A stretch of 38,838 nt of DNA from a virus (lineage: Duplodnaviria; Heunggongvirae; Uroviricota; Caudoviricetes), in the IMG/VR virus record IMGVR_UViG_2718217859_000004, positions 1-38,838 of that record. One strand, written 5' to 3'. Shown here one piece after another: positions 3,318 to 22,175 of this stretch (positions within the stretch are counted from its first letter, which is position 1; every line of letters begins with the position of its first letter). The notes beneath the pieces were generated by a model that saw only the letters and a program-made list of their open reading frames with translations, was not told the DNA's origin and ran no database searches. The position numbers were made by a program, and so were the translations under genes.

Positions 3318-3545
3318 ATGTTGAAAATTGATGCTATAGCGTTTTTTGGCAGCAAAACAAAGCTTGCCAATGCCGCAGGAGTTAGGCTGGCAAGCGTTGC
3401 TGCATGGGGGAAACTGGTTCCTGAAGGTCGCGCGATGCGTCTACAGGAGGCATCTGGCGGTGAGCTTCAGTATGATCCCAAAGTTTATGACGAATATCGT
3501 AAGACGAAGCGGGCAGGGCGGTTGAACAATGAAAATCACTCCTGA
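3318..3545 (+). CDS. dicC: Cro-like regulator, DicC/YdaS-like (75 aa)
   Basis: MLKIDAIAFFGSKTKLANAAGVRLASVAAWGKLVPEGRAMRLQEASGGELQYD...; AAGGAG RBS; divergent from repressor. Confidence 0.8.
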   Translation: MLKIDAIAFFGSKTKLANAAGVRLASVAAWGKLVPEGRAMRLQEASGGELQYDPKVYDEYRKTKRAGRLNNENHS

Positions 3546-4080
3546 ACAGGCTCGTGAGGCTCTGGATGCCTGGATATGTCGACCAGGTATGACACAGGAG
3601 CGGGCGACGATATTAATCACTGAAGCATTCTGGGCTATGAAAGAACGCCCGAACATCGATGTTCAGCGTGTCACATCTGAAGGTGGCGCGGTTGATCAGC
3701 GAGCGCTTGGCGTTAATCGAGTGAAGATATTCGAACGCTGGAAGGCTATCGACACTAGGGATAAGCGTGAAAAGTTCACAGCGCTAGTGCCTGCAATTAT
3801 GGAGGCTATCCGGATTAGTGATTTCAGGTTGTATCGTGAGATCAGTGATGGAAAAAGTATTACGTATATGATCGCCGGGTTAAACAAAGAATATGGCGAT
3901 GTGGTGGAGTCCGGGCTGCTTTTTGCGGATCCAGCTGTTGTGGAACGTGAGACTGACGAGCTTATAGAAAAAGCTATTGCTTTCAAGCACGCGTATCGTC
4001 AGCAATACCAATATTACTTTGCAGATAAACAAATGTCTGCCAGGAGTTCGTATGAGTATCGATGCACTACGATGGGCTAA
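3529..4080 (+). CDS. YdaT-like / CII-like regulatory protein (183 aa), family assignment tentative
   Basis: ATG at 3529 overlapping the dicC-like 3' end; position after cro matches ydaS-ydaT order in Rac-type prophages; sequence match not verifiable here. Confidence 0.4.
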   Translation: MKITPEQAREALDAWICRPGMTQERATILITEAFWAMKERPNIDVQRVTSEGGAVDQRALGVNRVKIFERWKAIDTRDKREKFTALVPAIMEAIRISDFRLYREISDGKSITYMIAGLNKEYGDVVESGLLFADPAVVERETDELIEKAIAFKHAYRQQYQYYFADKQMSARSSYEYRCTTMG

Positions 4081-5092
4081 AAAGGTGAAAACCGGCAGTT
4101 CATCCAGTAAGTCAGTATTGACCTGGCTTGCTGATATGTGCGGTGCCGATTTGTGTGCATACCCGTCTGTATCTGCACTGGCAGAAGTAACGGAACTGAA
4201 CAAAAAGACTGTGCAGGACAGCTTACGACACCTGATGGAGATTGGGTTAATTGTTGATACCGGTGAGAGAAAAGGCCGAACAAAGCAAATTGTGGTGTAC
4301 CGACTTATCGGTGTTGAAGAAAGTGTTGCCGAGCCTGAATACCCCCAAAAACGGGGGGCTTTAAAGGTGGGTAAAATTGGTACTGTTAATAAGAACAGTA
4401 CTGAAAATGGTTATGTTTCAGCACAAAACAGACCCAAAAACGGAACTCTTAGATGCATGGAAAATAACCAAAGACACCCAAATTTTCCATCAAAGACACC
4501 CAAAAACGGATCACGGAACCCAAAGGAACCCAAAGATCTAAACCCCACACATAACTCACGCGAGAGTGCTCCGACCTGTGAGCAGGAAGTTTTGTCGTTA
4601 CAGGCTGCACCCCCTGTATTCCTGGATGGCCTGAGCGAACCCATCGGAAAATTTCCGATGACCGATAGCTGGTATCCGTCACGGGATTTTCGACGACGGG
4701 CTGCGTTGTGGGGGATAGCTTTGCCGGAGACAGAATTTACACCTGCTGAACTTGCCGCCTTCCGGGACTACTGGGCAGCGGAGGGGAAAGTGTTTACGCA
4801 GATTCAGTGGGAGCAGAAATTCGCCCGTCACGTAAATCACGTCAGGGCGCAGGTTAAACCAGTCAGCAAGGGGGTAAACCATGCAGCAGCACCAGGTGGC
4901 ACCGCATCACGGGCAGTTCAGGAAATTCGGGCAGCACGTGAGCAGTGGGAACGTGAAAACGGATTTATCAGCGACGGAAACGGCCTGGAAGCTGTGGGAA
5001 CTCATGGGGGAGGTTTATTCGAACCGCTGGACCCAGAAGAACGGGGCCGCACCTTCGAAGCTCTGGATTGCACAGATTGGCGCGATGACTGA
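4052..5092 (+). CDS. Replication initiation protein (lambda O-like, HTH / DnaT-like domain)
   Basis: ATG at 4052 with AGGAG at 4043-4047; MSIDALRWAKKVKTGSSSSKSVLTWLADMCGADLCAYPSVSALAEVTELNKKTVQDSLRHLMEIGLIVD... typical of phage replication initiators; 3' end uncertain because of overlap with the P-like ORF. Confidence 0.7.
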   Translation: MSIDALRWAKKVKTGSSSSKSVLTWLADMCGADLCAYPSVSALAEVTELNKKTVQDSLRHLMEIGLIVDTGERKGRTKQIVVYRLIGVEESVAEPEYPQKRGALKVGKIGTVNKNSTENGYVSAQNRPKNGTLRCMENNQRHPNFPSKTPKNGSRNPKEPKDLNPTHNSRESAPTCEQEVLSLQAAPPVFLDGLSEPIGKFPMTDSWYPSRDFRRRAALWGIALPETEFTPAELAAFRDYWAAEGKVFTQIQWEQKFARHVNHVRAQVKPVSKGVNHAAAPGGTASRAVQEIRAAREQWERENGFISDGNGLEAVGTHGGGLFEPLDPEERGRTFEALDCTDWRDD

Positions 5093-5546
5093 GCAGCAAA
5101 TCCGACAGGTCTGCCGCCAGTGCATGGACCGCTGCCGGGCGGGTGAAACATGGCCTCCGGACCTGGCTGAGTTTGTGGCGCTGATTTCGGAAAGCGGAGC
5201 CAATCCATTCGGTCTGACGGTGGATGCTGTGATGGAGGAGTACCGCCGCTGGCGCAATGAGTCCTGGCGATACGACGGAAGTGATAAGTACCCGTGGTCT
5301 CAGCCTGTGCTGTATCACATTTGCCTCGAGATGCGTTCAAAGGGAATTGAGCGCCAGATGACCGAAGGGGAATTAAAACGGCTTGCAGAACGGCAGCTGA
5401 CGAAATGGGCAAAGCATGTTAGTAACGGCCTGAGCGTTCCGCCAGTCCGGCGACAACTGGCGGCACCCAAACGCCCGTCGGGGCCAACGCCAATTGAGTT
5501 GCTGAAACAGGAATATGAACGCCGGAAAGCGGCTGGGTTTGTTTGA
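4881..5546 (+). CDS. Replication protein P family (helicase loader-like)
   Basis: C-terminal half aligns with recalled lambda P (ETWPPDLAEFVAL / PSPGQFVAW; YPWSQPVLYHICLEM / YPWKSNAHYWLVTNL; TEGELKRLAERQL / TDAELRRKAADEL). Strongest RBS (GGGGG) precedes ATG 4881; alternatives 5004 and 5085. Confidence 0.65.
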   Translation: MQQHQVAPHHGQFRKFGQHVSSGNVKTDLSATETAWKLWELMGEVYSNRWTQKNGAAPSKLWIAQIGAMTEQQIRQVCRQCMDRCRAGETWPPDLAEFVALISESGANPFGLTVDAVMEEYRRWRNESWRYDGSDKYPWSQPVLYHICLEMRSKGIERQMTEGELKRLAERQLTKWAKHVSNGLSVPPVRRQLAAPKRPSGPTPIELLKQEYERRKAAGFV

Positions 5547-7193: not shown

Positions 7194-7952
7194 ATGAGGA
7201 ACATAATGGCTGGTTTTTTAATATTCCTGTCTTCAGCTGCTTATGCTGATATCAATCTGTATGGTCCTGGTGGCCCGCATACAGCCTTGCTTGATGCAGC
7301 CAAACTTTATGCCGAAAAAACAGGTATTATAGTGAACGTTCATTACGGCCCACAGAACAAATGGAATGAAGATGCCAAAAAAAATGCAGATATCTTGTTT
7401 GGCGCATCAGAACAATCTGCTCTGGCTATCATTCGGGACCATAAAGACAGCTTCAGTGAAAAAGATATTCAGCCTCTTTATCTGCGAAAAAGTATTTTAC
7501 TGGTAAAGAAAGGTAATCCTAAAAATATCCGGAGTATTGACGACCTGACCAGACCCGGGATTGGCGTAATTGTTAATGATGGTGGTGGTACCAGTAATAC
7601 ATCAGGCACTGGAGTCTGGGAAGATATTGCCGGACGTAAAGGGAATATAGAAACTGTCGCCGCAATCCGAAAAAATATTATTTTATATGCACCCAATAGC
7701 GGAACTGCACGTAAGGCTCTTGAGAATCAGCCTGGAGCAGATGTCTGGATAACCTGGGCTGACTGGGCAGCCAGTAATCCAGAAATTGGTGATGTCGTGG
7801 AAATAGCGCCAGACTACGTGATATGGCGTGATATGAACATTACAGTACGTCAGGATGCAAATGATGAAACCCGTCGATTTGCAGAATGGCTACAAACCGA
7901 TGAAGCGGCGCCTGCATTCAAAAAATATGGCTGGACCAGGAAAGGCACTTGA
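7194..7952 (+). CDS. Secreted periplasmic substrate-binding protein (ModA/tungstate-binding-like fold), orphan cargo gene
   Basis: AAGGAG RBS; signal peptide MRNIMAGFLIFLSSAAYA; DINLYGPGGPHTALLDAAKLYAEKTG... similar in architecture to ModA-type binding proteins; no adjacent ABC permease/ATPase; low-GC flank. Confidence 0.7.
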   Translation: MRNIMAGFLIFLSSAAYADINLYGPGGPHTALLDAAKLYAEKTGIIVNVHYGPQNKWNEDAKKNADILFGASEQSALAIIRDHKDSFSEKDIQPLYLRKSILLVKKGNPKNIRSIDDLTRPGIGVIVNDGGGTSNTSGTGVWEDIAGRKGNIETVAAIRKNIILYAPNSGTARKALENQPGADVWITWADWAASNPEIGDVVEIAPDYVIWRDMNITVRQDANDETRRFAEWLQTDEAAPAFKKYGWTRKGT

Positions 7953-8234: not shown

Positions 8235-8438
8235 TGCGACACATAGAGATTAGCCTCTTACGGACCGAAAGGTCAAGGAGAAGCAGGCTATGAAGCAGCA
8301 AAAGGCGATGCTAATCGCCCTGATCGTCATCTGTTTAACCGTCTTAGTGACGGCACTGGTAACGAGGAAAGACCTCTGCGAGGTACGAATCCGAACCGGC
8401 CAGACGGAGGTCGCTGTCTTCACAGCTTACGAACCTGA
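8235..8438 (+). CDS. mok-like overlapping reading frame (67 codons) of the hok locus
   Basis: ATG at 8235; ORF overlaps hok in another frame and ends 7 nt before the hok stop, as mok does in hok/sok loci. Confidence 0.4.
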
Positions 8439-8445
8439 GGAGTAA
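8290..8445 (+). CDS. hokD: Hok/Gef family membrane toxin (51 aa), HokD/RelF-like
   Basis: Translation MKQQKAMLIALIVICLTVLVTALVTRKDLCEVRIRTGQTEVAVFTAYEPEE; below the 60-aa ORF-track cutoff; one TM helix plus conserved Cys. Confidence 0.85.
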   Translation: MKQQKAMLIALIVICLTVLVTALVTRKDLCEVRIRTGQTEVAVFTAYEPEE

Positions 8446-10328: not shown

Positions 10329-10694
10329 ATGACTGAACGCATAGAATTTGTTTTGCCTTACCCGCCGACGGTGAATACCTACTGGCGACGTCATGGCAAT
10401 ACGTATTTCATCTCGGAAGCCGGAAAGCGTTATCGCCGTGATGTGGCGCTAATTGTTCGCCAGCAGCGGCTGAAATTAAATCTGTCCGGAAGGCTGGCGA
10501 TAAAGGTTATCGCAGAGCCGCCGGATAAGCGCCGTCGTGATCTGGACAATATTCTGAAAGCACCGCTGGATGCGCTGACGCATGCGGGGCTTCTCATAGA
10601 CGACGAGCAGTTTGATGAAATCAATATTGTGCGCGGTCTGCCTGTTCCTGGTGGGCGGCTGGGCGTGAAGATTTACAAAATTGAAAGTGAGTGA
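10329..10694 (+). CDS. rusA: RusA-family Holliday junction resolvase
   Basis: FVLPYPPTVNTYWRRHG...RRRDLDNILKAPLDALTHAGLLIDDEQ matches RusA catalytic motifs (PPS.N, RRRDLDN, D.L). Confidence 0.85.
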   Translation: MTERIEFVLPYPPTVNTYWRRHGNTYFISEAGKRYRRDVALIVRQQRLKLNLSGRLAIKVIAEPPDKRRRDLDNILKAPLDALTHAGLLIDDEQFDEINIVRGLPVPGGRLGVKIYKIESE

Positions 10695-10702
10695 GCGTAA
10701 AT

Positions 10703-11239
10703 ATGATATACCCGGAAATTACAGGCAAAAGCGGTGAGCATTTACGCCTGAAAACGCTGGAAAGTGTCTGGCTCCAGGGGAAACTGCGTATGTGGGGGCG
10801 TTGGTCGTATATAGGTGGTGGCAAAACAGGAAATATGTTCAATCAGTTGCTGGCATCCAAAAAACTGACAAAAACCGCGATCAATGAAGCCATGCGCAAA
10901 ATCAGGGAATCAGGGATTGATAAACCTGAACTGGAAGCATTCTTGCGTGAGATGATCGAAGGAAAGCAAAAAAGCTGGTTAACTCACTGCACTGATGCAG
11001 AGGCACTAAAAATTGATAGTGTTATAGGTGAAGTTCTGGCGGATCATCCAGGACTACTAAATGTCCTGAGTCAGCGTTATGTGGGGCGAGGGATGAGTAA
11101 GAGAAGGATGGCCGAGTTATTAAACGAACAGTACCCAGAGTGGGCGTTGATTACATGCCGACGTCGTGTTGATCAGTGGTTGCGTGTTGCTGAGTTCATT
11201 TTGTACTCACCTATGAGAGAAGCGTTCGATTATACTTAA
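10703..11239 (+). CDS. Late-gene antiterminator, Q-like (assignment tentative)
   Basis: Position after RusA; LRMWGRWSY resembles the ERWGAW motif of Q-family proteins; followed ~100 nt downstream by an intrinsic terminator (tR'-like). Alt. GTG start 10691. Confidence 0.55.
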   Translation: MIYPEITGKSGEHLRLKTLESVWLQGKLRMWGRWSYIGGGKTGNMFNQLLASKKLTKTAINEAMRKIRESGIDKPELEAFLREMIEGKQKSWLTHCTDAEALKIDSVIGEVLADHPGLLNVLSQRYVGRGMSKRRMAELLNEQYPEWALITCRRRVDQWLRVAEFILYSPMREAFDYT

Positions 11240-11333
11240 AAAATCATTGCAAAATGAGCCACAAACTGCTTCAATTCCGGTACGCTTCGCATAGCTGTAT
11301 CGCGAGGCGAATCAAGCGCATGAACTTTGATAC

Positions 11334-11357
11334 AACCCGCCATTGAGCGGGTTTTTT
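11334..11357 (+). terminator. Intrinsic terminator ~95 nt downstream of the Q-like gene (tR'-like)
   Basis: ACCCGC-cattga-GCGGGT followed by TTTTTT. Confidence 0.6.
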
Positions 11358-11479
11358 ATGTCCGAAAAACGGCAGAGAACATAAAACGTGCTGGTGGTTG
11401 CGAATACTGGTCTTTCGGCTTGTATTTTTGTAAATCGATATATACTTATCTTGTGACCAGTAATGTCAGGGCAATTGAT

Positions 11480-12223
11480 ATGAATGAAGCCTGTTCTGTT
11501 GTTTTTGTTCATTCCCCGTTTGTTGTGCTCTTTGAAGGAAAAGAGCTCTCTCTTGAAAGTGGTAGTGCACTTCTTGTCAGGGGGGGAGCTGGATCGTTAT
11601 TGCCCTTTTCGGAATGTTTTCGGCGAATAAGTCTCAGTGAATCGACAATTAGCCGTTACCTGTTGTGTGGAGACGAAAAACAGGATGTAGTTTTAGTCCG
11701 GCAAATACCACGATATCTTTGCGTGAGTTTTCCCAAGGCAGAATTGATGGGCATCCTGATTGATTATCTTTGTGAGGAAAAGATTCATACGGACAATTTA
11801 GCGGAAATGCTTTCCTTTTCGTGTCTGGCGTTTTTCTCATCAGAGAAAATGTTTTCGTCGTTTCTGACCGCGTGTATTAGCAATATTAGTGACAGGCTTA
11901 GTGCATTGTTTCGTACGGACATTGCAGCAAACTGGACTCTGAGAGATGTGTCTTCGCGGTTATGTATCAGTGAAAGTTTGTTAAAAAAAAGACTGAAAGA
12001 AGAAGGCACCTGTTTCAGTGAGTTGTTGCTTACAGAGAGAATGAGAATGGCAGCAATGCTGTTGAATCAATCTCGTTGCGCCATCAACAGAATCGCTGCC
12101 CAGTGCGGCTATAATTTTACATCTTATTTTATCAGCGTATTCAGGAGTTATTTTGGTGTTACACCGGCAGGTTACAGGATGGCTGCATTCAATGAGATGA
12201 GTTTAAGTGTTACTCAAGAATAA
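11480..12223 (+). CDS. AraC-family transcriptional regulator, AppY-like (cargo gene)
   Basis: C-terminal AraC HTH (LKKRLKEEGTCFSELLLTERMRMAAMLLNQSRCAINRIAAQCGYNFTSYFISVFRSYFGVTPAGY) and N-terminus EACSVVFVHSPF resemble AppY/EnvY-type regulators; AT-rich gene. Confidence 0.8.
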   Translation: MNEACSVVFVHSPFVVLFEGKELSLESGSALLVRGGAGSLLPFSECFRRISLSESTISRYLLCGDEKQDVVLVRQIPRYLCVSFPKAELMGILIDYLCEEKIHTDNLAEMLSFSCLAFFSSEKMFSSFLTACISNISDRLSALFRTDIAANWTLRDVSSRLCISESLLKKRLKEEGTCFSELLLTERMRMAAMLLNQSRCAINRIAAQCGYNFTSYFISVFRSYFGVTPAGYRMAAFNEMSLSVTQE

Positions 12224-12408: not shown

Positions 12409-12834
12409 ATGTTTGGTATTTTCAAAAAGAAAACCCGCAAGGCCATTACTGAAGTGAAGAAGATGGAGAATCGCGATGCAGTGGAGGCGACCGTCTGGGG
12501 CGCGTATTCCATTGCATATGCTGACGGCACCTGTGACGCGAAAGAAATCGCGGTACTGGAGAAAACCATTGCAGCACTTCCTGCCTTTGCGCTGTTCTCG
12601 GGTGAGATTGCACAAATGAGTGCAAATATCCGCGCCCGTTATGAAGCATCGCCGCGTTCTGCCAATGCCGAAGCCCTCCGCCAGCTGGCTGATGTTGCCG
12701 GTACTGATGACGCTGTTAATGTGCTGTGCCTGTGTCTGGATATCGCTGACCAGGATGGTATTGGTCCGGATGAAGAAGCACAGCTCAAGAAAATTGCTCA
12801 GGCACTGCAGTTACCACTGGAGCAGTACCTGTGA
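12409..12834 (+). CDS. TerB-like (tellurite-resistance TerB domain) protein
   Basis: 141 aa, two DG-x-E-containing helices (YADGTCDAKEIAVLEKTIAAL; DQDGIGPDEEAQLKKIAQAL) typical of the TerB fold; AAGGA RBS. Confidence 0.55.
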   Translation: MFGIFKKKTRKAITEVKKMENRDAVEATVWGAYSIAYADGTCDAKEIAVLEKTIAALPAFALFSGEIAQMSANIRARYEASPRSANAEALRQLADVAGTDDAVNVLCLCLDIADQDGIGPDEEAQLKKIAQALQLPLEQYL

Positions 12835-12989
12835 AAAGTGCGCGTCTTGTGCTGGCTGCCATCCTGCTGTTTCTGGTAGTGGTGGTGGATTTTACCGGAC
12901 GGCTGATGTCGGTACTGGCAGATGGTGTGCTGGTGGCGATGGCGCTGGTCGTGCTCCGGCCTTTATTCCGGAGCAAAAACAACGGCTGA
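12831..12989 (+). CDS. Small membrane peptide (52 aa, two predicted TM helices), coupled to the TerB-like gene
   Basis: GTG overlapping TerB-like stop (GTGA); VKSARLVLAAILLFLVVVVDFTGRLMSVLADGVLVAMALVVLRPLFRSKNNG; below ORF-track cutoff. Confidence 0.35.
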   Translation: MKSARLVLAAILLFLVVVVDFTGRLMSVLADGVLVAMALVVLRPLFRSKNNG

Positions 12990-12996
12990 TTATTTG

Positions 12997-13025
12997 AGCG
13001 GGCATTTAAAGCCCGCTGCATTTTT
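12997..13025. terminator. Hairpin plus T-run between convergent genes
   Basis: AGCGGGC-atttaaa-GCCCGCT followed by GCATTTTTATT; lies between the + strand TerB/peptide pair and the minus-strand zinc-ribbon gene. Confidence 0.55.
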
Positions 13026-13704
13026 ATTGCTGCTGTTCCTTAATGCGTTCCGGTAGCACAAATGCCACTTCAAGGAACAACCGGAGAAACGCCACAAACT
13101 CTTTTGCCTGCTCATCACTGGCCTCGAGTTCGTGCACGGCTTCATTTCCTTCCATACGGATTCGGTGAGCCCAGTTTCTCATTGATTCCGTCAGTATGCC
13201 GTCCTGCCGTGCCACTTCAATGCGTGACAGCAGATTGCCTTTTTCGTACCCCAGGGCACGGAGGGCAACCTCGAGGACGCTACGGCAGCCAACAATAATA
13301 CGCGGGGCAGTTCTGCCGGACCGAACATCCTCCTGCAACTCAGTGAAGACTGCGCGAATTTTTTCGGGATAGTGGGGGGAGTCATCGGGCAGCCTGAGTT
13401 CAGGATAGATTTTGATGCTCCCCTCAAGTGGAGCATTCAGCACCCAGGCTTTGTTGTTGATGGCTTTTTTCATGTCCACCAGTTCACTGACTGAACATTC
13501 GAATGCGATCATTAATGGGTTGTTGCATTCTGTGCAAAAGTCCGTTGAGTATGCTTTTGCTGATGTTATTTCAGAGGTACGCGGTTGTTGCATGTAAAGC
13601 TTGTTTTCTGTAGCCGGACGCCTGCTGTGGTACTGGGTGACCTCATTCAGAGAAATATGAACCTGATGAAGGCAGTACGGGCATTTAATTTTCAGGGAGT
13701 ACAT
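13024..13704 (-). CDS. Zinc-ribbon protein with DUF4145/HEPN-like C-terminal domain (candidate abortive-infection/defence protein)
   Basis: Start 13702-13704 with GAAGAGG upstream (ORF extends to 13893); N-terminal CPYC...CTEC zinc ribbon; C-terminus IIVGCRSVLEVALRAL...MRNWAHRIRMEGNEAVHELEA with an R-x7-H motif in an all-helical region. Domain call from memory, unverified. Confidence 0.5.
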   Translation of the reverse strand: MYSLKIKCPYCLHQVHISLNEVTQYHSRRPATENKLYMQQPRTSEITSAKAYSTDFCTECNNPLMIAFECSVSELVDMKKAINNKAWVLNAPLEGSIKIYPELRLPDDSPHYPEKIRAVFTELQEDVRSGRTAPRIIVGCRSVLEVALRALGYEKGNLLSRIEVARQDGILTESMRNWAHRIRMEGNEAVHELEASDEQAKEFVAFLRLFLEVAFVLPERIKEQQQ

Positions 13705-13962
13705 ATGACCTCTTCGACAGAAGTGATAACTGAATTTGAAAATTGCATAGCAGATTCTGCCAGTGATTCTGTAGCAGCGATAGAACGAAGGTTTGCTGCT
13801 GCTCAGACCCGGTATGGTCATGATGCAGCCGTCAAGGGGCTGGCAATGGCGTTTGTTATTGCAGAGAACCGCCGTCGCTTTATTGAAGCGCAAATGACAC
13901 TAAAGCAATAAATAGCACCACACAAAAGGCATCTGAGGGTGCCTTTGACGGGGTGTTTTTAT

Positions 13963-13988
13963 GGGCCACTGGAGGCCCTTTTTTATTT
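13963..13988 (+). terminator. Terminator-like hairpin immediately upstream of the holin gene
   Basis: GGGCC-actgga-GGCCC followed by TTTTTTATTT; holin RBS starts 3 nt later. Confidence 0.5.
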
Positions 13989-14002
13989 ACAGGAGAAAAA
14001 GT

Positions 14003-14395
14003 ATGTCTGAACCCTTATCCGGTTCCGGCACGGCTGCGGCGCTCGGCGGGGCGACGGTATTCGGGCTGTTTACCGGAACGGATTTCGGGATTGTGTTTGG
14101 TGCGTTCGCCGGGGCGTTATTTGTGGCAACGATGCCGCAGGCGCTTTCAGCCTGGCGGGTGGCGGCGCATTTTCTGGTGTCGTTCATTGTCGGCGTGCTG
14201 GGAGCGCGTGTGCTGTCTGCCTGGATAGCGGCAAAAACAGGTTATGACGGCACATCGGCAGATGCGCTGTGTGCGGTGCTGGTATCGGTGGTGTCGGTAA
14301 AGATTCTGTCGTTCATCCACCAGCAGGATATCGCATCACTGGTGTCCGGCCTGTTCTCCCGCCTGCGGGGTGGAGGAGGCGGCAATGTTAAGTAA
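14003..14395 (+). CDS. Phage holin (multi-TM)
   Basis: AGGAG RBS; 130 aa with Gly/Ala-rich hydrophobic segments (GGATVFGLFTGTDFGIVFGAFAGALFVA...); first gene of the lysis cassette. Confidence 0.7.
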   Translation: MSEPLSGSGTAAALGGATVFGLFTGTDFGIVFGAFAGALFVATMPQALSAWRVAAHFLVSFIVGVLGARVLSAWIAAKTGYDGTSADALCAVLVSVVSVKILSFIHQQDIASLVSGLFSRLRGGGGGNVK

Positions 14396-14660
14396 CCTTC
14401 CCGGATTGCTGAATGTGGCGTTATGCACGGTTATCGTGCTGACGCTCTTTTTTTATCGTCGCCGTGATTCCAGACATAAACCGCTGATGTCATGGCTGGC
14501 CTGGCTGCTGATGCTGTTGTATGCCTTTGCGCCACTCAGCTACCTGTGTGGTCGTCCGTTAGCGGCGAACTGGCTGGCGGTGGGGCTTAATCTGCTGTTC
14601 TGCGTGCTGGTGATTCGTGCACGTGGGAACGTTTCAAAAATCCTTTCATTACGGAGGTGA
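14385..14660 (+). CDS. Second lysis-associated membrane protein (holin/antiholin-like)
   Basis: ATG 14385 after GGAGGAGG, overlapping holin stop; 91 aa with hydrophobic helices. Confidence 0.55.
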   Translation: MLSNLPGLLNVALCTVIVLTLFFYRRRDSRHKPLMSWLAWLLMLLYAFAPLSYLCGRPLAANWLAVGLNLLFCVLVIRARGNVSKILSLRR

Positions 14661-14662
14661 GT

Positions 14663-15040
14663 ATGTCGGGTAAATTCAGATTCAGCCGTCGGAGCGAGAA
14701 AAATCTGGAGGGCGTAAAACCACAGCTGGTTGCTGTCGTTCGCCGTGCGCTGGAGCTGACGGAGGTTGATTTCGGTATTACGGAAGGTCTGCGCACGAAA
14801 GAGCGCCAGAAACAACTGGTTGCAGAAGGCAAGAGCCAGACCATGAACAGCCGCCACCTGACCGGTGATGCGGTGGATGTTGTTGCCTGGGTTGGCAGCC
14901 AGGTGTCATGGGACTGGCCTCTGTACGAGAAAATCGCGCAGGCATTTAAGCAGGCCGCTACAGAGCTGGGAATCGCCATCGAATGGGGCGGGGACTGGAA
15001 AACGTTGAAGGACGGGCCTCACTTTCAGTTGAAACGATAA
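14663..15040 (+). CDS. Endolysin, peptidase M15 (D-Ala-D-Ala carboxypeptidase-like) family
   Basis: GGAGG 5 nt upstream; ...LVAEGKSQTMNSRHLTGDAVDVVAW...EWGGDW...DGPHFQL with zinc-ligand-like H/D/H residues typical of M15 endolysins. Confidence 0.8.
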   Translation: MSGKFRFSRRSEKNLEGVKPQLVAVVRRALELTEVDFGITEGLRTKERQKQLVAEGKSQTMNSRHLTGDAVDVVAWVGSQVSWDWPLYEKIAQAFKQAATELGIAIEWGGDWKTLKDGPHFQLKR

Positions 15041-15121
15041 GTAAAGCAAAACCCCGGTTGTTGGAGCAATCGGGGCTTTGTGTTTATGGATTCATTTTGT
15101 GAATGCGCATGGGGATCATTC

Positions 15122-15319
15122 ATGCCAGTAAAGCCTAACACGACGAAAGATAAATTTGGAGATGATCTGATGATAAAAGCAGAAACCACCCCGCAGGGGG
15201 CTGATGATGCCGCAAAAATCATCGCGGTATGCCGGGGCATCAGACATATACTGACGCCAGTTGCATGGATTATTTGTACTGCACTGGTTGCATACACAAC
15301 AATTTATTTAAACAGATGA
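15122..15319 (+). CDS. Small protein with C-terminal TM helix (65 aa), lysis-cassette associated
   Basis: GGGGA RBS; ...ILTPVAWIICTALVAYTTIYLNR; translationally coupled (ATGA) to a 28-aa TM peptide at 15316-15402. Confidence 0.3.
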   Translation: MPVKPNTTKDKFGDDLMIKAETTPQGADDAAKIIAVCRGIRHILTPVAWIICTALVAYTTIYLNR

Positions 15320-15403
15320 GTGCTGATTTTATTCGGGCAACGGCCTTTGCAATCCGCCTTGTGGCGGTCGCTGTTCTGATTTGGGCCGGGCGTTGGTGGT
15401 GAT

Positions 15404-15586
15404 ATGACGCGAAAACACTGGACACACAGAATGCTGCGAACGGCGGCGAAATGGGCACTGGTGGCGATACTGGTGCCTTTTTTATTGGCGGGATGCGTCA
15501 GCCTGGATAAGGCGCGCCAGATTTTCGATACAGTTTCTCTGGTCTGTGAAATTGTCGACAGTGTCCGACAGTGTATGCAGAACTGA
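15404..15586 (+). CDS. Putative lipoprotein (60 aa), possible o-spanin-like or exclusion lipoprotein
   Basis: Signal peptide with lipobox LLAG|C (MTRKHWTHRMLRTAAKWALVAILVPFLLAGC); mature part has Cys residues; directly follows small TM ORFs after the endolysin. Confidence 0.45.
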   Translation: MTRKHWTHRMLRTAAKWALVAILVPFLLAGCVSLDKARQIFDTVSLVCEIVDSVRQCMQN

Positions 15587-15757
15587 TCGCCTGTAGGAGC
15601 AGAATATTTTGCTGAAAAATGAAGGATGCGTCAGCGTCCGGAAAGCATGAAATTCTGTGTTTGTAGCTGCTCAATAAAATAAATTCTTTCTGTCGCCGCG
15701 AATACTCAAATGCTGATCAGTGCCCGGTGCGGCGACGGGCTTTGATATCGGGAGACG

Positions 15758-16057
15758 ATGATGGAAAAAACAGAAAATAAACCGATTGTAATTGGTGCTG
15801 ATGCTGCTCCGTTCAAGTTTGAGTTGTCTCAACTGGTGGAGATGCGCATCAGTGATGAATGGGGTGAGGTTAAAGCCCGCGCGCAGTATGCGGATGGCGA
15901 AAACCAGTACTTGATCCACTACAAAGCAGCTGATGGTCGCGCCATGACGGAGTGGTTTGGTGAGTCAATGCTGGAAGCAACAGAAGATGTTCGTCATCCT
16001 GGTTGTCCGGTATTTGCTGGTATGGAATTACCGAAAGGCGCGGTCGTTACTGAGTAA
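15758..16057 (+). CDS. Hypothetical protein (99 aa)
   Basis: GGGAGA RBS then ATGATG; no recognisable family; between lysis genes and cos. Confidence 0.5.
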   Translation: MMEKTENKPIVIGADAAPFKFELSQLVEMRISDEWGEVKARAQYADGENQYLIHYKAADGRAMTEWFGESMLEATEDVRHPGCPVFAGMELPKGAVVTE

Positions 16058-16159
16058 CGGGCATTACAGCAGCCCTTTATGGTGAGGGGCTGCGATAATG
16101 CAGGTATTAGAGTGTGCGTAAATGATAATTGCTCCTATTTCCGCGGGTCCTTTCCATAA

Positions 16160-16350
16160 CCTGAAACACCGGGGGACGGCAGACGCGCAAAAACGCGCTA
16201 TTTATGAAAATTTTCAGGGAAAAAGCAGATCCGTTCTTCTTCTGGATAACCTGTTGTTTAATAGGACTTTCTTTAAAAAAAGAAAGGATCTGGCAGCGGT
16301 GATTTTTCGCTGAAAAAAGCGTTTTGAGATCCTTTCTTCTTTTTGTGAGG
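16160..16350 (+). other. Lambda-like cos site (cosN/cosB) upstream of the small terminase gene
   Basis: GGGGGACGGCAGACGCGCAAAAACGCGCTATTTATGAAAATTTTCAGG...CCGTTCTTCTTC closely parallels lambda GGGCGGCGACCTCGCGGGTTTTCGCTATTTATGAAAATTTTCCGG...CCGTTCTTCTTC; palindrome CTTTCTTT-aaaa-AAAGAAAG lies in the cosB-equivalent region. Confidence 0.7.
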
Positions 16351-16360
16351 AATATGTGCC

Positions 16361-16909
16361 GTGAAGGTTAACAAAAAGAAACTGGCAGAGATTTTTGAGT
16401 GCGATGTCAGAACAATCACTGGCTGGCAAAGTCAGGGGCTGAGAGTTTTGTCGGGGGGAGGCAAAGGTATCGAGGCCATGTTCAATACTGCAGAAGCCAT
16501 TGAGTGGTATGCGCAGCGGGAAAAAGATATCGAAAACGAAAAGCTCCGCAAAGAACTGGAAGATTTGCGTGCGGCTGCAGAATCAGATTTACAACCCGGC
16601 ACCATTGACTATGAACGCTACCGGCTCACCAAAGCACAGGCTGACGCACAGGAGATGAAAAATGCCCGTGAAGAAGGGCTGGTGCTGGAAACGGAATTGT
16701 TTACCTTCATTCTGCAACGTGTGGCACAGGAGATTTCGGGGATACTTGTACGTGTGCCGCTGACATTACAGCGTAAATATCCGGATATTTCACCGTCACA
16801 CCTTGATGTGGTGAAAACTGAAATCGCGAAAGCCTCCAATGTTGCAGCTAAAGCCGGTGAAAACGTGGGCAGGTGGATTGATGATTTCAGACGCACAGAA
16901 GGCAGCTAA
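16361..16909 (+). CDS. Terminase small subunit, lambda Nu1-like
   Basis: [41 protein letters not shown]...[13 protein letters not shown]...[28 protein letters not shown] aligns closely with lambda Nu1; GTG start. Confidence 0.9.
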
Positions 16910-20578: not shown

Positions 20579-22175
20579 TTTATCGCATATTGCCGCCATG
20601 GCATTTAATGAGCCGCTTTTACTGGAACCCGCCTATGCGCGGGTTTTCTTTTGCGCGCTGGGTAAAGAGATGGGGGCCGGCAGCCTTGCAGTTCCTCAGC
20701 AGGCTGTTCAGCTTGATGCTGATGGTATGCAACTGGCTGTGACTGACTATATGGCGGGCGGTCAGCGTCCGGCAAAGAGTTACCAGGTGAAGAATGGCAT
20801 CGCCATTCTGCCGGTGAGCGGCACGCTGGTGCATAAACTGGGTACCCTGCGGCCTTACTCTGGCATGACAGGCTATGACGGTCTGACTGCTCGTCTTCAG
20901 ATGGCGGTGAATGATCCGGATGTGCGCGGCATTTTGCTGGATATCGACAGCCCGGGCGGTCAGGCAGCCGGGGCGTTTGACTGTGCTGACATGATTTACC
21001 GCCTGCGGGAACAGAAGCCCGTGTGGGCGCTGTGTAATGACATGGCCTGTTCAGCCGCCATGTTGCTGGCGGCAGCCTGTACGCGTCGGCTGGTCACGCA
21101 GACGGCAAAAATTGGTTCGATTGGCGTGATGATGGCGCACACCAGTTACGAGAAACAACTGGCACAGGAAGGGGTGGACATCACGCTGATTTACTCCGGG
21201 CAGCACAAGGTTGACGGCAACAGTATTCAGGCATTGCCGGCAGGTGTGCGTGCAGATTTTCAGCGCCGTATTGATGAGGCCCGCCGGATGTTTGTCGACA
21301 AGGTGTCGCTTTATACGGGGCTGAGTTCAGAGGCGGTGATGAATACCGAGGCTGCCGTTTATGACGGTCAGGCAGGGATTGATGCAGGCCTGGCTGATCA
21401 ACTGATTAATGCTGCAGATGCCGTTGAAGTGATGGTTTCTGCAATAAATAAAGAAATTAATAGAGAGGTAAATATGTCGCAAACGAATGTTTCGATCATT
21501 GAGGCTGTGGCCCAGGAAAATCAGCGCGTGATGGAGATCCTGAATTGTCAGGAGGCGAAAGGGCGCGAGCAACTTGCGCAAATGCTGGCAGGTCAGCCTG
21601 GAATGACGGTAGAGCAGGCGAAAGCGTTCCTGGCTGCTGTGCCTGCTGCCAGTGTGGCAAATACAGGTGATCAGATTATGGGGCTGCCGGAAGCAAAGGG
21701 GCGTGAGCAACTGGCACAGATGCTGGCAGGTCAACCGGGGATGACGGTGGAGCAGGCGAAAGCGTTTCTGGCGGCAGCCCCTGCTGCCGGCACAGGCGAT
21801 CAGATTATGGCGTTACCAGAAGCAAAAGGGCGTGAACAACTCGCGCAGACGCTGGCTGAACAGCCGGGAATGACCGTTGACCAGGCCAAAACGTTACTGG
21901 CGGCGGCACCGGTTGCTGGTTCTGCAAGTGTCGGCGATCAGATTATGGCGCTGCCGGAGGCGAAAGGGCGCGAGCAACTTGCACAGGCACTGACAGAACA
22001 ACCTGGAATGACGGTGGCGCAGGCGAAAACGCTGCTGGCAGCCGCGCCGGTGGCATCGCAACCGTCACAGGAAACACTTTTTGATCGCTTTATGGCACAG
22101 CATGCTGCCAGTGCGGTTTCCGGTGGCGGAACTGCCGGGCGCGGGGAGGAAGACCTGCTGATGAGTATGCCGTAA
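20568..22175 (+). CDS. Head maturation protease / scaffold, lambda gpC-like (S49/ClpP-like), with expanded C-terminal repeats
   Basis: MRRNLSHIAAMAFNEPLLLEPAYARVFFCALG...SYQVKNGIAILPVSGTLV...RTGSIGVMMAH aligns with lambda C; 535 aa vs ~439 in lambda because of tandem repeats. Confidence 0.9.
   Translation: MRRNLSHIAAMAFNEPLLLEPAYARVFFCALGKEMGAGSLAVPQQAVQLDADGMQLAVTDYMAGGQRPAKSYQVKNGIAILPVSGTLVHKLGTLRPYSGMTGYDGLTARLQMAVNDPDVRGILLDIDSPGGQAAGAFDCADMIYRLREQKPVWALCNDMACSAAMLLAAACTRRLVTQTAKIGSIGVMMAHTSYEKQLAQEGVDITLIYSGQHKVDGNSIQALPAGVRADFQRRIDEARRMFVDKVSLYTGLSSEAVMNTEAAVYDGQAGIDAGLADQLINAADAVEVMVSAINKEINREVNMSQTNVSIIEAVAQENQRVMEILNCQEAKGREQLAQMLAGQPGMTVEQAKAFLAAVPAASVANTGDQIMGLPEAKGREQLAQMLAGQPGMTVEQAKAFLAAAPAAGTGDQIMALPEAKGREQLAQTLAEQPGMTVDQAKTLLAAAPVAGSASVGDQIMALPEAKGREQLAQALTEQPGMTVAQAKTLLAAAPVASQPSQETLFDRFMAQHAASAVSGGGTAGRGEEDLLMSMP
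21474..22175 (+). CDS. Putative in-frame internal scaffold protein (Nu3-like) nested in the C gene
   Basis: In-frame ATG 21474 preceded by AGAGAGG (spacing 6), just upstream of the repeat region; by analogy with lambda Nu3 nested in C. Confidence 0.4.
   Translation: MSQTNVSIIEAVAQENQRVMEILNCQEAKGREQLAQMLAGQPGMTVEQAKAFLAAVPAASVANTGDQIMGLPEAKGREQLAQMLAGQPGMTVEQAKAFLAAAPAAGTGDQIMALPEAKGREQLAQTLAEQPGMTVDQAKTLLAAAPVAGSASVGDQIMALPEAKGREQLAQALTEQPGMTVAQAKTLLAAAPVASQPSQETLFDRFMAQHAASAVSGGGTAGRGEEDLLMSMP
21553..22060 (+). repeat. In-frame tandem coding repeats (about 3.7 copies of a 129-138 nt unit) in the C/Nu3 scaffold region
   Basis: Units begin ~21553, 21691, 21819, 21957, each encoding EAKGREQLAQ.LA.QPGMTV.QAK..LAA.P.A....GDQIM.LP; copies diverged at synonymous and non-synonymous sites. 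Confidence 0.85.

Follow-up and report, generated by a model that had tools for sequence, protein, structure and literature searches.

The 38,838-nucleotide (nt) stretch of DNA analysed here, referred to below as the window, is a phiP27-like lambdoid prophage of Escherichia coli, and its lysis region is 92-97% identical to phiP27 and to prophages carrying SubAB or Shiga toxin (Stx) genes. The lysis cassette of the window ends with a gene for a small predicted lipoprotein (15404-15586, + strand). Comparison with related cassettes shows that this gene is a modular alternative to the spanin genes Rz/Rz1 at the end of the late lysis cassette, and in the loci examined its distribution is mutually exclusive with canonical Rz/Rz1. 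Based on gene position and sequence, we lean towards the interpretation that the lipoprotein substitutes for Rz/Rz1 in disrupting the outer membrane, and that it would do so without a canonical inner-membrane spanin subunit (i-spanin).

Replacement of Rz/Rz1 at a fixed junction

In a sample of 80 loci anchored on the second holin gene of the cassette (holin 2), the endolysin gene was followed by the lipoprotein gene in 71 and by canonical Rz with an embedded Rz1 in 4. No locus contained both, and the rest of the loci were truncated or disrupted by insertion sequences. A second sample was gathered by a degenerate DNA pattern search for the junction ..TGGTGGTGAtATG at which these genes start. 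Among its 57 non-redundant loci, 38 had an Rz-like gene at the junction, 18 had the lipoprotein gene and 1 had a degenerate copy of it, and no other gene was found there. Junction CGTTGGTGGTGATATG does not vary, and its ATG is the start codon either of Rz or of the lipoprotein.

The gene that contributes the upstream side of this junction encodes a 37-amino-acid (aa) membrane peptide, here called ORF5L, which lies 1 nt upstream of either the lipoprotein or Rz (PF03245) with Rz1 (PF06085). Examples of the order ORF5L-Rz/Rz1 come from Stx-phage-like E. coli prophages and from Yersinia prophages, the latter combining the same holin pair with a GH108 endolysin. One locus (L111; L numbers denote individual loci) has a different 45-aa peptide, ending in GQIRWW, in the place of ORF5L before Rz.

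Rz has been reported in 277 of 279 Stx phages, and a metallopeptidase endolysin, pham 762, in just two phages (PMC8136144). We infer that the two phages without Rz are the two with pham 762, which is not stated in that paper. Related M15 endolysins are found in P88-like phages, where the next gene encodes a DUF2570-domain protein. We take DUF2570 to be an i-spanin family.

Gene neighbourhoods of the lipoprotein

Neighbourhoods were compared in 83 loci anchored on the lipoprotein, with flanks of about 3 kilobases (kb) inspected on each side in most of them. The lipoprotein is the last lysis gene in this sample, and its upstream neighbour varies among the following arrangements:

M15 endolysin directly upstream, 28 loci (spacer of about 14 nt in L008)
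GH108 endolysin, then ORF5L, about 17 loci
GH108 endolysin, then the small transmembrane (TM) peptides D1 and D2, about 15 loci
M15 endolysin, then ORF5L, about 9 loci
M15 endolysin, then ORF4 and a truncated ORF5, as in the window, about 8 loci
M15 endolysin, then a reverse-strand 90-aa gene, as in phiP27, 2 loci

KilA is also among the genes upstream of the lipoprotein in some of the 83 loci. In total, there are more than 100 related loci in which the lipoprotein is the final gene of the lysis cassette, and it is preceded there by two types of endolysin (M15 and GH108) and two types of holin. It was found in the lysis cassette wherever there was enough upstream sequence, and was never seen at other genome positions. 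In the direct arrangement, the gene begins 3-15 nt past the endolysin stop codon. Divergent members of the family, with 35-58% identity, still begin 3-6 nt past an M15 endolysin and have no i-spanin, and one of these is accompanied by a holin of family PF05106. The mature lipoprotein is the same whatever gene precedes it, and there is therefore no partner-specific co-evolution.

Two neighbouring genes on the downstream side were also observed. In L020, a bor homologue lies immediately downstream of the lipoprotein on the opposite strand (3355-3696, - strand); in lambda, bor follows Rz1 in the same way. In a divergent cassette (L091 and L092), a gene for a 286-aa alpha/beta-hydrolase (4450-5310) comes next after a lambda-S-like holin, an M15 endolysin and the lipoprotein, an arrangement that recalls the esterase LysB of mycobacteriophages.

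Sequence, selection and distribution of the lipoprotein family

The 60-aa precursor has a basic and unusually long n-region (MTRKHWTHRMLRTAAK), a hydrophobic core (WALVAILVPFLL) and the lipobox LLAG/C. Its signal peptide, at residues 18-34, is the only hydrophobic segment, and the C-terminus is polar (..VRQCMQN). The predicted mature lipopeptide is 30 aa long (CVSLDKARQIFDTVSLVCEIVDSVRQCMQN), with Val at position +2 and two further cysteines. Over 52 distinct sequences, the ratio of non-synonymous to synonymous substitution rates (dN/dS) is 0.17 overall, 0.11 in the mature part and 0.15 in residues 1-9. The Prokaryotic Genome Annotation Pipeline (PGAP) annotates ORF4, ORF5 and the lipoprotein in near-identical prophages and calls the lipoprotein from Met10, as a 51-aa protein. 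Since residues 1-9 are constrained, we place the start at 15404 instead.

Residues G30, C31, C48 and C57 are invariant among 25 diverse members, with the two extra cysteines 8 or 9 residues apart. At +2, every aligned member has V, T, A, S, G or I and none has D, which implies that the lipoprotein would be sorted to the outer membrane. Most members have 29-31 residues after the lipidated Cys, and 2 of the 25 aligned have longer tails (34 and 41). The mature peptide is mostly 30-32 residues long and contains no proline in the window copy and most other members, and its net charge ranges from -4 to +3 but is mostly between -1 and +1. AlphaFold 2 modelled the whole precursor as one long helix with low confidence (predicted local distance difference test score, pLDDT, of 68), and the model is silent on oligomer and disulfide state. 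For the mature domain of the phiP27 homologue, the secondary-structure table in Kongari et al. 2018 (PMC6139136) lists 83% helix.

The lipoprotein matches phrog_7528 over its full length (positions 1-60 of 60, E 3.6e-35), a PHROG without an assigned function. No family was matched in Pfam (E up to 1), NCBIfam or PADLOC, and the Pfam scan gave no match to the Rz1 profile PF06085 within the same limit. There is a weak match to phrog_6073, "Rz-like spanin" (E 0.11), which covers residues 20-50 and thus includes the signal peptide. A profile search against 1.84 billion protein representatives returned 21 matches, all within the lipoprotein family, and no remote link to spanins or other lipoproteins. 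A profile search of the PDB returned designed helical-repeat proteins alone, with no individually significant stretch, and was uninformative.

Of 5426 complete E. coli genomes, 351 (about 6.5%) carry the gene, in 542 places altogether, and among the matches listed the E. coli copies are annotated as hypothetical or have no annotation. Homologues occur in Stx2e (phiP27), Stx2k and SubAB toxin prophages, in which the toxin genes lie just upstream of the lysis cassette. The record of Actinobacillus phage vB_Apl-pPE4 (PP818812.1, 18917-20332) has about 91% DNA identity to the window lysis region, an unannotated lipoprotein gene included; its host assignment or the purity of the sample is doubtful.

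Absence of an i-spanin and the phiP27 catalogue entry

A scan of the entire 38.8-kb window found a single credible lipobox open reading frame (ORF), which is the lipoprotein. The same scan found no ORF with i-spanin architecture (an N-terminal TM helix followed by a periplasmic domain), in agreement with the preliminary description of this DNA, which had noted that no i-spanin of normal size with an N-terminal TM helix and coiled coil is present. No similarity to Rz, Rz1 or DUF2570 spanins was found in the window either. Across the more than 100 loci, no adjacent, overlapping or embedded i-spanin was found beside the lipoprotein gene.

The homologue in phiP27, which belongs to phrog_7528, is 83% identical and occupies the same position in the same cassette, has been catalogued as a putative outer-membrane spanin subunit (o-spanin). 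In that survey it is a singleton of the separated type, paired with a 64-aa "i-spanin", and the pair has the shortest periplasmic length in the data set even when this partner is counted (PMC6139136). The "i-spanin" (L001, NC_003356.1 20348-20542) is an ORF with a TTG start that lies antisense to the 90-aa gene. This 90-aa gene is conserved in L081 (46% identity), where the frame of the "i-spanin" is broken. The antisense position and the broken frame indicate that the pairing is an artefact and that the "i-spanin" is probably spurious. This antisense ORF is the sole i-spanin candidate that the Kongari genome survey reported for phiP27. The catalogue thus pairs the lipoprotein with an artefact, in contrast to the lone lipoprotein described here as an alternative to Rz/Rz1. 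The gene itself is unannotated or misframed in phiP27 records: the RefSeq coding sequence L32 (20630-20785) does not share the frame of the conserved lipoprotein, which runs from the ATG at 20673 (or from Met 20706, according to Kongari et al.) to 20861 of NC_003356.1.

Lysis cassette of the window

The genes and elements of the lysis region are as follows:

10691-11239, Q-like antiterminator gene, upstream of the lysis cassette
14003-14395, + strand, holin 1, the first gene of the lysis cassette (PF16931, Phage_holin_8, E 5.7e-23; phrog_198, holin)
14385-14660, + strand, holin 2 (PF05449, Phage_holin_3_7, E 2.1e-21; phrog_217, holin)
14657-15040, + strand, M15 metallopeptidase endolysin (PF13539, E 2.1e-12; phrog_465, endolysin, E 1.1e-75)
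15052-15085, + strand, strong terminator-like hairpin between endolysin and ORF4, found by a terminator scan
15122-15319, + strand, ORF4, 65 aa, with a C-terminal TM helix
15316-15402, + strand, ORF5, a 28-aa TM peptide whose ATG overlaps the ORF4 stop codon (ATGA)
15404-15586, + strand, lipoprotein, 60-aa precursor with lipobox LLAG/C, starting 1 nt past the ORF5 stop codon

The holin 2 gene overlaps its neighbours on both sides, holin 1 at that gene's 3' end and the endolysin gene at its start. The longest ORF for holin 1 begins at 13961, and PGAP takes 14003 in near-identical relatives. A 130-aa holin encoded downstream of stx2e is needed for the induced release of Stx2e (PMC12571312). The cloning primer for that holin opens with the codons for MSEPLS, which is the N-terminus given by the 14003 start; the comparison covers the primer codons.

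The hairpin at 15052-15085 consists of the stem CCCCGGTTG..CAATCGGGG followed by CTTTGTGTTT, and was missed in the preliminary description. The region that contains it has a fold z of -3.6, and an Rfam scan of 13500-16500 gave no significant match. The same hairpin (CCCCGG..CCGGGG and a U-run) is found after M15, GH108 and lysozyme endolysins (L093, L015, L181, L187 and L087) and also 5' of the Salmonella homologue of ORF4. Its stems vary among loci with pairing preserved. The hairpin may mark the boundary of a module formed by ORF5L and the spanin gene, or may be a recombination site.

ORF4 and ORF5

ORF4 is predicted to be a small, tail-anchored membrane protein, hydrophilic in its N-terminal part and with a TM helix at the C-terminus. 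It belongs to a family of 49-67 aa found in E. coli and Salmonella, and matched no family in Pfam, NCBIfam or PADLOC. Its dN/dS is 0.18 against the Salmonella homologue, and E. coli variants differ by 15 synonymous changes to 1 non-synonymous. The gene is present in about 8 of the 83 lipoprotein loci and has a 1-nt frameshift in two relatives (L028 and L039). In Salmonella, the homologues follow tail-fibre genes at the end of the prophage, outside the lysis cassette. Because it occurs away from the lysis genes, ORF4 is, judged by its sequence and location, a selected independent moron and not part of the module in the spanin slot. Two other identities were considered for ORF4. A family link to LambdaSo Lcc6, also a 65-aa TM protein, was rejected on a comparison by description, because the layout of Lcc6 is the opposite one: its TM helix is N-terminal and its C-terminal tail is cytoplasmic. 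The other was a type I toxin; the conserved upstream hairpin also occurs in cassettes that lack ORF4 and so is not specific to it.

ORF5 corresponds to the last 26 codons of ORF5L, and homology to the ORF5L loci begins at 15324. Full-length ORF5L (MKGIEVETPASLDLTRAAAFAIRLVAVAVLIWAVRWW) is composed of MKGIEVETPASLDLTR, a TM helix and RWW, and the window copy is not full length. ORF5 matches the C-terminal part of phrog_4493 (positions 24-54 of 56), which has no function assigned, and an internal part of phrog_3246 (positions 55-80 of 90); no named family was matched in Pfam, PHROGs, NCBIfam or PADLOC. No Shine-Dalgarno sequence precedes 15316, and any translation of ORF5 would therefore require reinitiation at the ATGA. 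This ATGA lies no more than 8 nt from the recombination breakpoint at 15324, so that the coupling of ORF4 and ORF5 is not a conserved design. ORF4 was inserted between the endolysin hairpin and ORF5L, an event that cost ORF5L its first 11 codons and provided the new ATG of ORF5. A frameshift fusion of ORF4 and ORF5, considered because of the 90-aa length of phrog_3246, was rejected, as elsewhere ORF5L is a 37-aa gene in its own right and the junction coincides with the recombination breakpoint.

The full 37-aa ORF5L is present in more than 4000 data blocks, and occurs in thousands of E. coli assemblies. Every ORF5L locus examined (for example L093-L100 and L181-L190) has it 1 nt upstream of Rz/Rz1 or the lipoprotein. 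ORF5L also precedes real Rz/Rz1 and is therefore not a partner specific to the lipoprotein; its sequence and position look like those of an unrecognised accessory gene of lysis cassettes or of the spanin slot.

The preliminary description had presented three translationally coupled small ORFs after the endolysin as a possible unusual equivalent of the spanins. Their positions, the ATGA coupling, the TM helices, the lipobox and the extra cysteines were all confirmed. The suggestion of a spanin equivalent holds for the lipoprotein, which occupies the Rz/Rz1 slot and excludes Rz/Rz1. It does not hold for the three ORFs as one unit, since ORF4 is an independent moron and ORF5 is a truncated form of a gene that also precedes genuine Rz/Rz1.

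Proposed role of the lipoprotein in outer membrane disruption

If the lipoprotein does substitute for Rz/Rz1, the following sequence of events would be expected. The gene would be transcribed together with the late lysis genes, and the precursor would be exported by Sec and lipidated at Cys31. Since the residue at +2 is Val and not Asp, Lol would be expected to sort the lipoprotein to the inner leaflet of the outer membrane, and the two invariant cysteines would be oxidised in the periplasm. Once the holin and endolysin have stripped away the peptidoglycan, the amphipathic helical lipopeptide could destabilise the outer membrane, or, as an alternative last step, could fuse it with the now-apposed inner membrane. 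The 29 residues past the lipid anchor would extend about 4 nm as a helix. This reach is too short to bridge an intact periplasm, and the mode of action would therefore differ from that of both classical two-component and unimolecular spanins. More tentatively, with a confidence that falls somewhat short of even, we suggest that a 30-residue lipid-anchored helical peptide may by itself suffice for the outer membrane step of lysis, acting from the inner leaflet after the peptidoglycan is gone.

Several points weigh against this interpretation. The role proposed for the family is drawn from sequence and gene position, and the exclusivity counts come from closely related prophages that represent few independent events. 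The mature peptide is near neutral and moderately amphipathic (hydrophobic-moment z of about 1-2.8), and so does not resemble a cationic membrane-disrupting peptide. Searches of Pfam, PHROGs and NCBIfam found no sequence or profile likeness to spanin, colicin lysis protein or entericidin families. The flanks of about 3 kb leave room for a distant i-spanin in most loci, a possibility that is excluded for the 38.8-kb window. Lambda spanins are partly dispensable under shaking laboratory conditions, and loss of a spanin is tolerable at least in vitro. Finally, the position behind the endolysin is a moron hot spot, in which ORF4, KilA and the reverse 90-aa gene have all landed, and a gene unrelated to lysis could have displaced Rz/Rz1 there.

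Alternative explanations

This last point leads to the alternative that, although unlikely, deserves the most attention, in which the lipoprotein is a non-lysis moron, either a Cor/Llp-like exclusion protein or a Bor-like conversion protein, that displaced Rz/Rz1 and left phages that lyse without a spanin. Such a role would suit a small prophage lipoprotein with no similarity to spanin families, at a mosaic hot spot in which ORF4, KilA-N and the reverse 90-aa gene are found as well, and lambda spanin nulls still lyse with agitation. A Cor-like exclusion lipoprotein had also been raised in the preliminary description, and is disfavoured by the layout of the cassette: with 3-15 nt between the endolysin stop codon and the lipoprotein there is no space for a promoter of its own between the genes, and the lipoprotein uses the very ATG that Rz uses in sister cassettes and is strictly exclusive with Rz/Rz1. 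Its linkage to the lysis genes also holds across divergent holins and endolysins. ORF4, a true moron, moves to other positions, whereas the lipoprotein was never seen elsewhere. The genes for known exclusion lipoproteins, moreover, adjoin those for tail or receptor-binding proteins, and their expression is early or takes place in the lysogen.

It is improbable, in our estimation, that the lipoprotein is instead a factor for lysis timing or control, a periplasmic or outer membrane regulator of the holins or the endolysin. Co-transcription with two holin genes would be consistent with regulation, as would the unusually long, basic and conserved n-region of the signal peptide (dN/dS 0.15) and the clustering of other small membrane peptides (ORF5L, D1 and D2) at the same place, and accessory lysis factors such as LambdaSo Lcc6 have recently been found. 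A regulator should, however, add to Rz/Rz1 and not exclude them, and the presence of the gene with two unrelated endolysins (M15 and GH108) and two sets of holins argues against a specific protein target.

We give little credence to a third alternative, a genuine o-spanin whose inner membrane partner comes either from the host or from a phage gene beyond the regions examined. The signal for signal peptidase II (SPII), the predicted outer membrane sorting, the periplasmic cysteines and the position at the end of the lysis cassette are all as expected of an o-spanin, and Kongari et al. classed the phiP27 homologue as one. No credible i-spanin is present, however, in the 38.8-kb window, which extends from the early region to the tail genes, or in the phiP27 genome, and 29 residues could form a two-component bridge only with a very long partner.

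Least credible of all, and very improbable, is a minimal two-component spanin in which the upstream peptides (ORF5/ORF5L, D2 and perhaps ORF4) serve the lipoprotein as miniature i-spanins: ORF5L does precede the lipoprotein by 1 nt in 64 loci, a count that includes duplicates between samples, and, from its charge distribution, may be an N-out, Pf3-coat-like protein with a 16-residue periplasmic tail, but 57 of the loci counted have the lipoprotein right behind the endolysin and no small TM gene between them, ORF5L also stands before complete Rz/Rz1 pairs, the mature lipoprotein is identical in all contexts, ORF5 of the window lacks the N-terminal half, ORF4 also occurs at a distance from the lysis genes and in some loci is a pseudogene, and the combined periplasmic length of at most about 45 residues is far below that of any known spanin.

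Comparison with known systems

The lipoprotein and lambda Rz/Rz1 (PF03245/PF06085) share the same slot and the same junction ATG, and exclude each other. Lambda Rz1 has further traits in common with the lipoprotein: a precursor of about 60 aa, a lipobox, outer membrane sorting and a functionally important periplasmic Cys. Unlike Rz/Rz1, the lipoprotein has no i-spanin, is not embedded in another gene, has no sequence similarity to them and would not be able to span the periplasm. Its mature part is 30 aa, predicted to be helical and free of proline, in contrast to the 40-aa, proline-rich and unstructured mature part of Rz1. When compared on sequence with two-component o-spanins in general, the lipoprotein has the SPII signal and no Asp at +2, but has neither a cognate i-spanin nor the length needed for bridging. 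With a unimolecular spanin such as T1 gp11 it shares a single gene in the spanin position and an N-terminal lipoprotein signal; it differs in having no C-terminal TM domain and a mature length of about 30 aa, compared with roughly 100 aa for proteins of the gp11 type.

The closest functional analogy for a lone lipopeptide appears to lie in the colicin lysis proteins (PF02402) and entericidin B, lipoproteins of very small size that need no inner membrane partner to permeabilise or lyse the envelope. Mature colicin lysis proteins are about 28-33 aa, which is roughly the size of the lipoprotein. There is no homology between these proteins and the lipoprotein (Pfam, E up to 1), and the latter is encoded in a phage late lysis cassette and not in a colicin operon or at a chromosomal locus.

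The disruptin of phage phiKT, gp28, is not known to have a signal sequence or a lipid anchor, unlike the lipoprotein, which has an SPII signal, is predicted to be lipid-anchored and is roughly neutral. It has been described as a phage-encoded cationic antimicrobial peptide (10.1101/515445), and it resembles the role proposed here as a non-spanin solution for the outer membrane in a phage without spanins. Of the steps known in Gram-negative phage lysis, outer membrane disruption is the least diverse, with spanins and one cationic peptide as the only effectors described, and about 15% is the share of phages without an identified outer membrane solution (10.1101/515445).

As a small prophage-encoded lipoprotein of (predicted) outer membrane location, the protein also resembles Cor, Llp and Bor. 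No similarity to these was found in Pfam or NCBIfam, and in contrast to them the lipoprotein gene lies in the lysis cassette. The genes for Cor, Llp and Bor either lie close to tail or receptor-binding genes or form separate morons that are expressed on their own; their mature products measure about 60-100 aa, and none is fused to lysis genes.

The lipoprotein gene was thus already catalogued in phiP27, and what appears new is the evidence for it as a stand-alone replacement of Rz/Rz1; no report of such a role came up in full-text literature searches. If the interpretation is true, a stand-alone lipopeptide of about 30 residues would be the smallest outer membrane lysis effector and would form a further class of disruptor beside two-component spanins, unimolecular spanins and disruptin, and the spanin-catalogue entry for phiP27 would be corrected. 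A minimal lipopeptide active on the outer membrane could also be of interest to designers of endolysin-based antibacterials. If instead its function proves unrelated to lysis, the gene would still represent a clean modular replacement at a fixed junction in lambdoid phages.

Other prophage cargo

Directly before holin 1, on the opposite strand, is a gene for a DUF4145 protein (13024-13893, - strand) with a weak PADLOC match to PD-T7-4 (E 3.8e-4), which is possibly a defence moron. It occupies the slot that holds the stx2e or subAB toxin genes in relatives. Further upstream, a TerB-like gene (12409-12834, + strand) overlaps by 4 nt a gene for a DUF3927 small membrane peptide (12831-12989, + strand), and the two genes are found together again in other prophages (L094-L100), just upstream of the same lysis cassette. 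A gene for an AraC-family regulator (11327-12223, + strand) comes right after the Q-like antiterminator gene and is unusual prophage cargo, as is a gene in the early region for a periplasmic solute-binding protein (SBP_bac_11; 7194-7952, + strand). The early region additionally contains a 51-aa ORF for a type I toxin of the Hok/Gef family (8290-8445, + strand; PF01848, E 4.9e-24).

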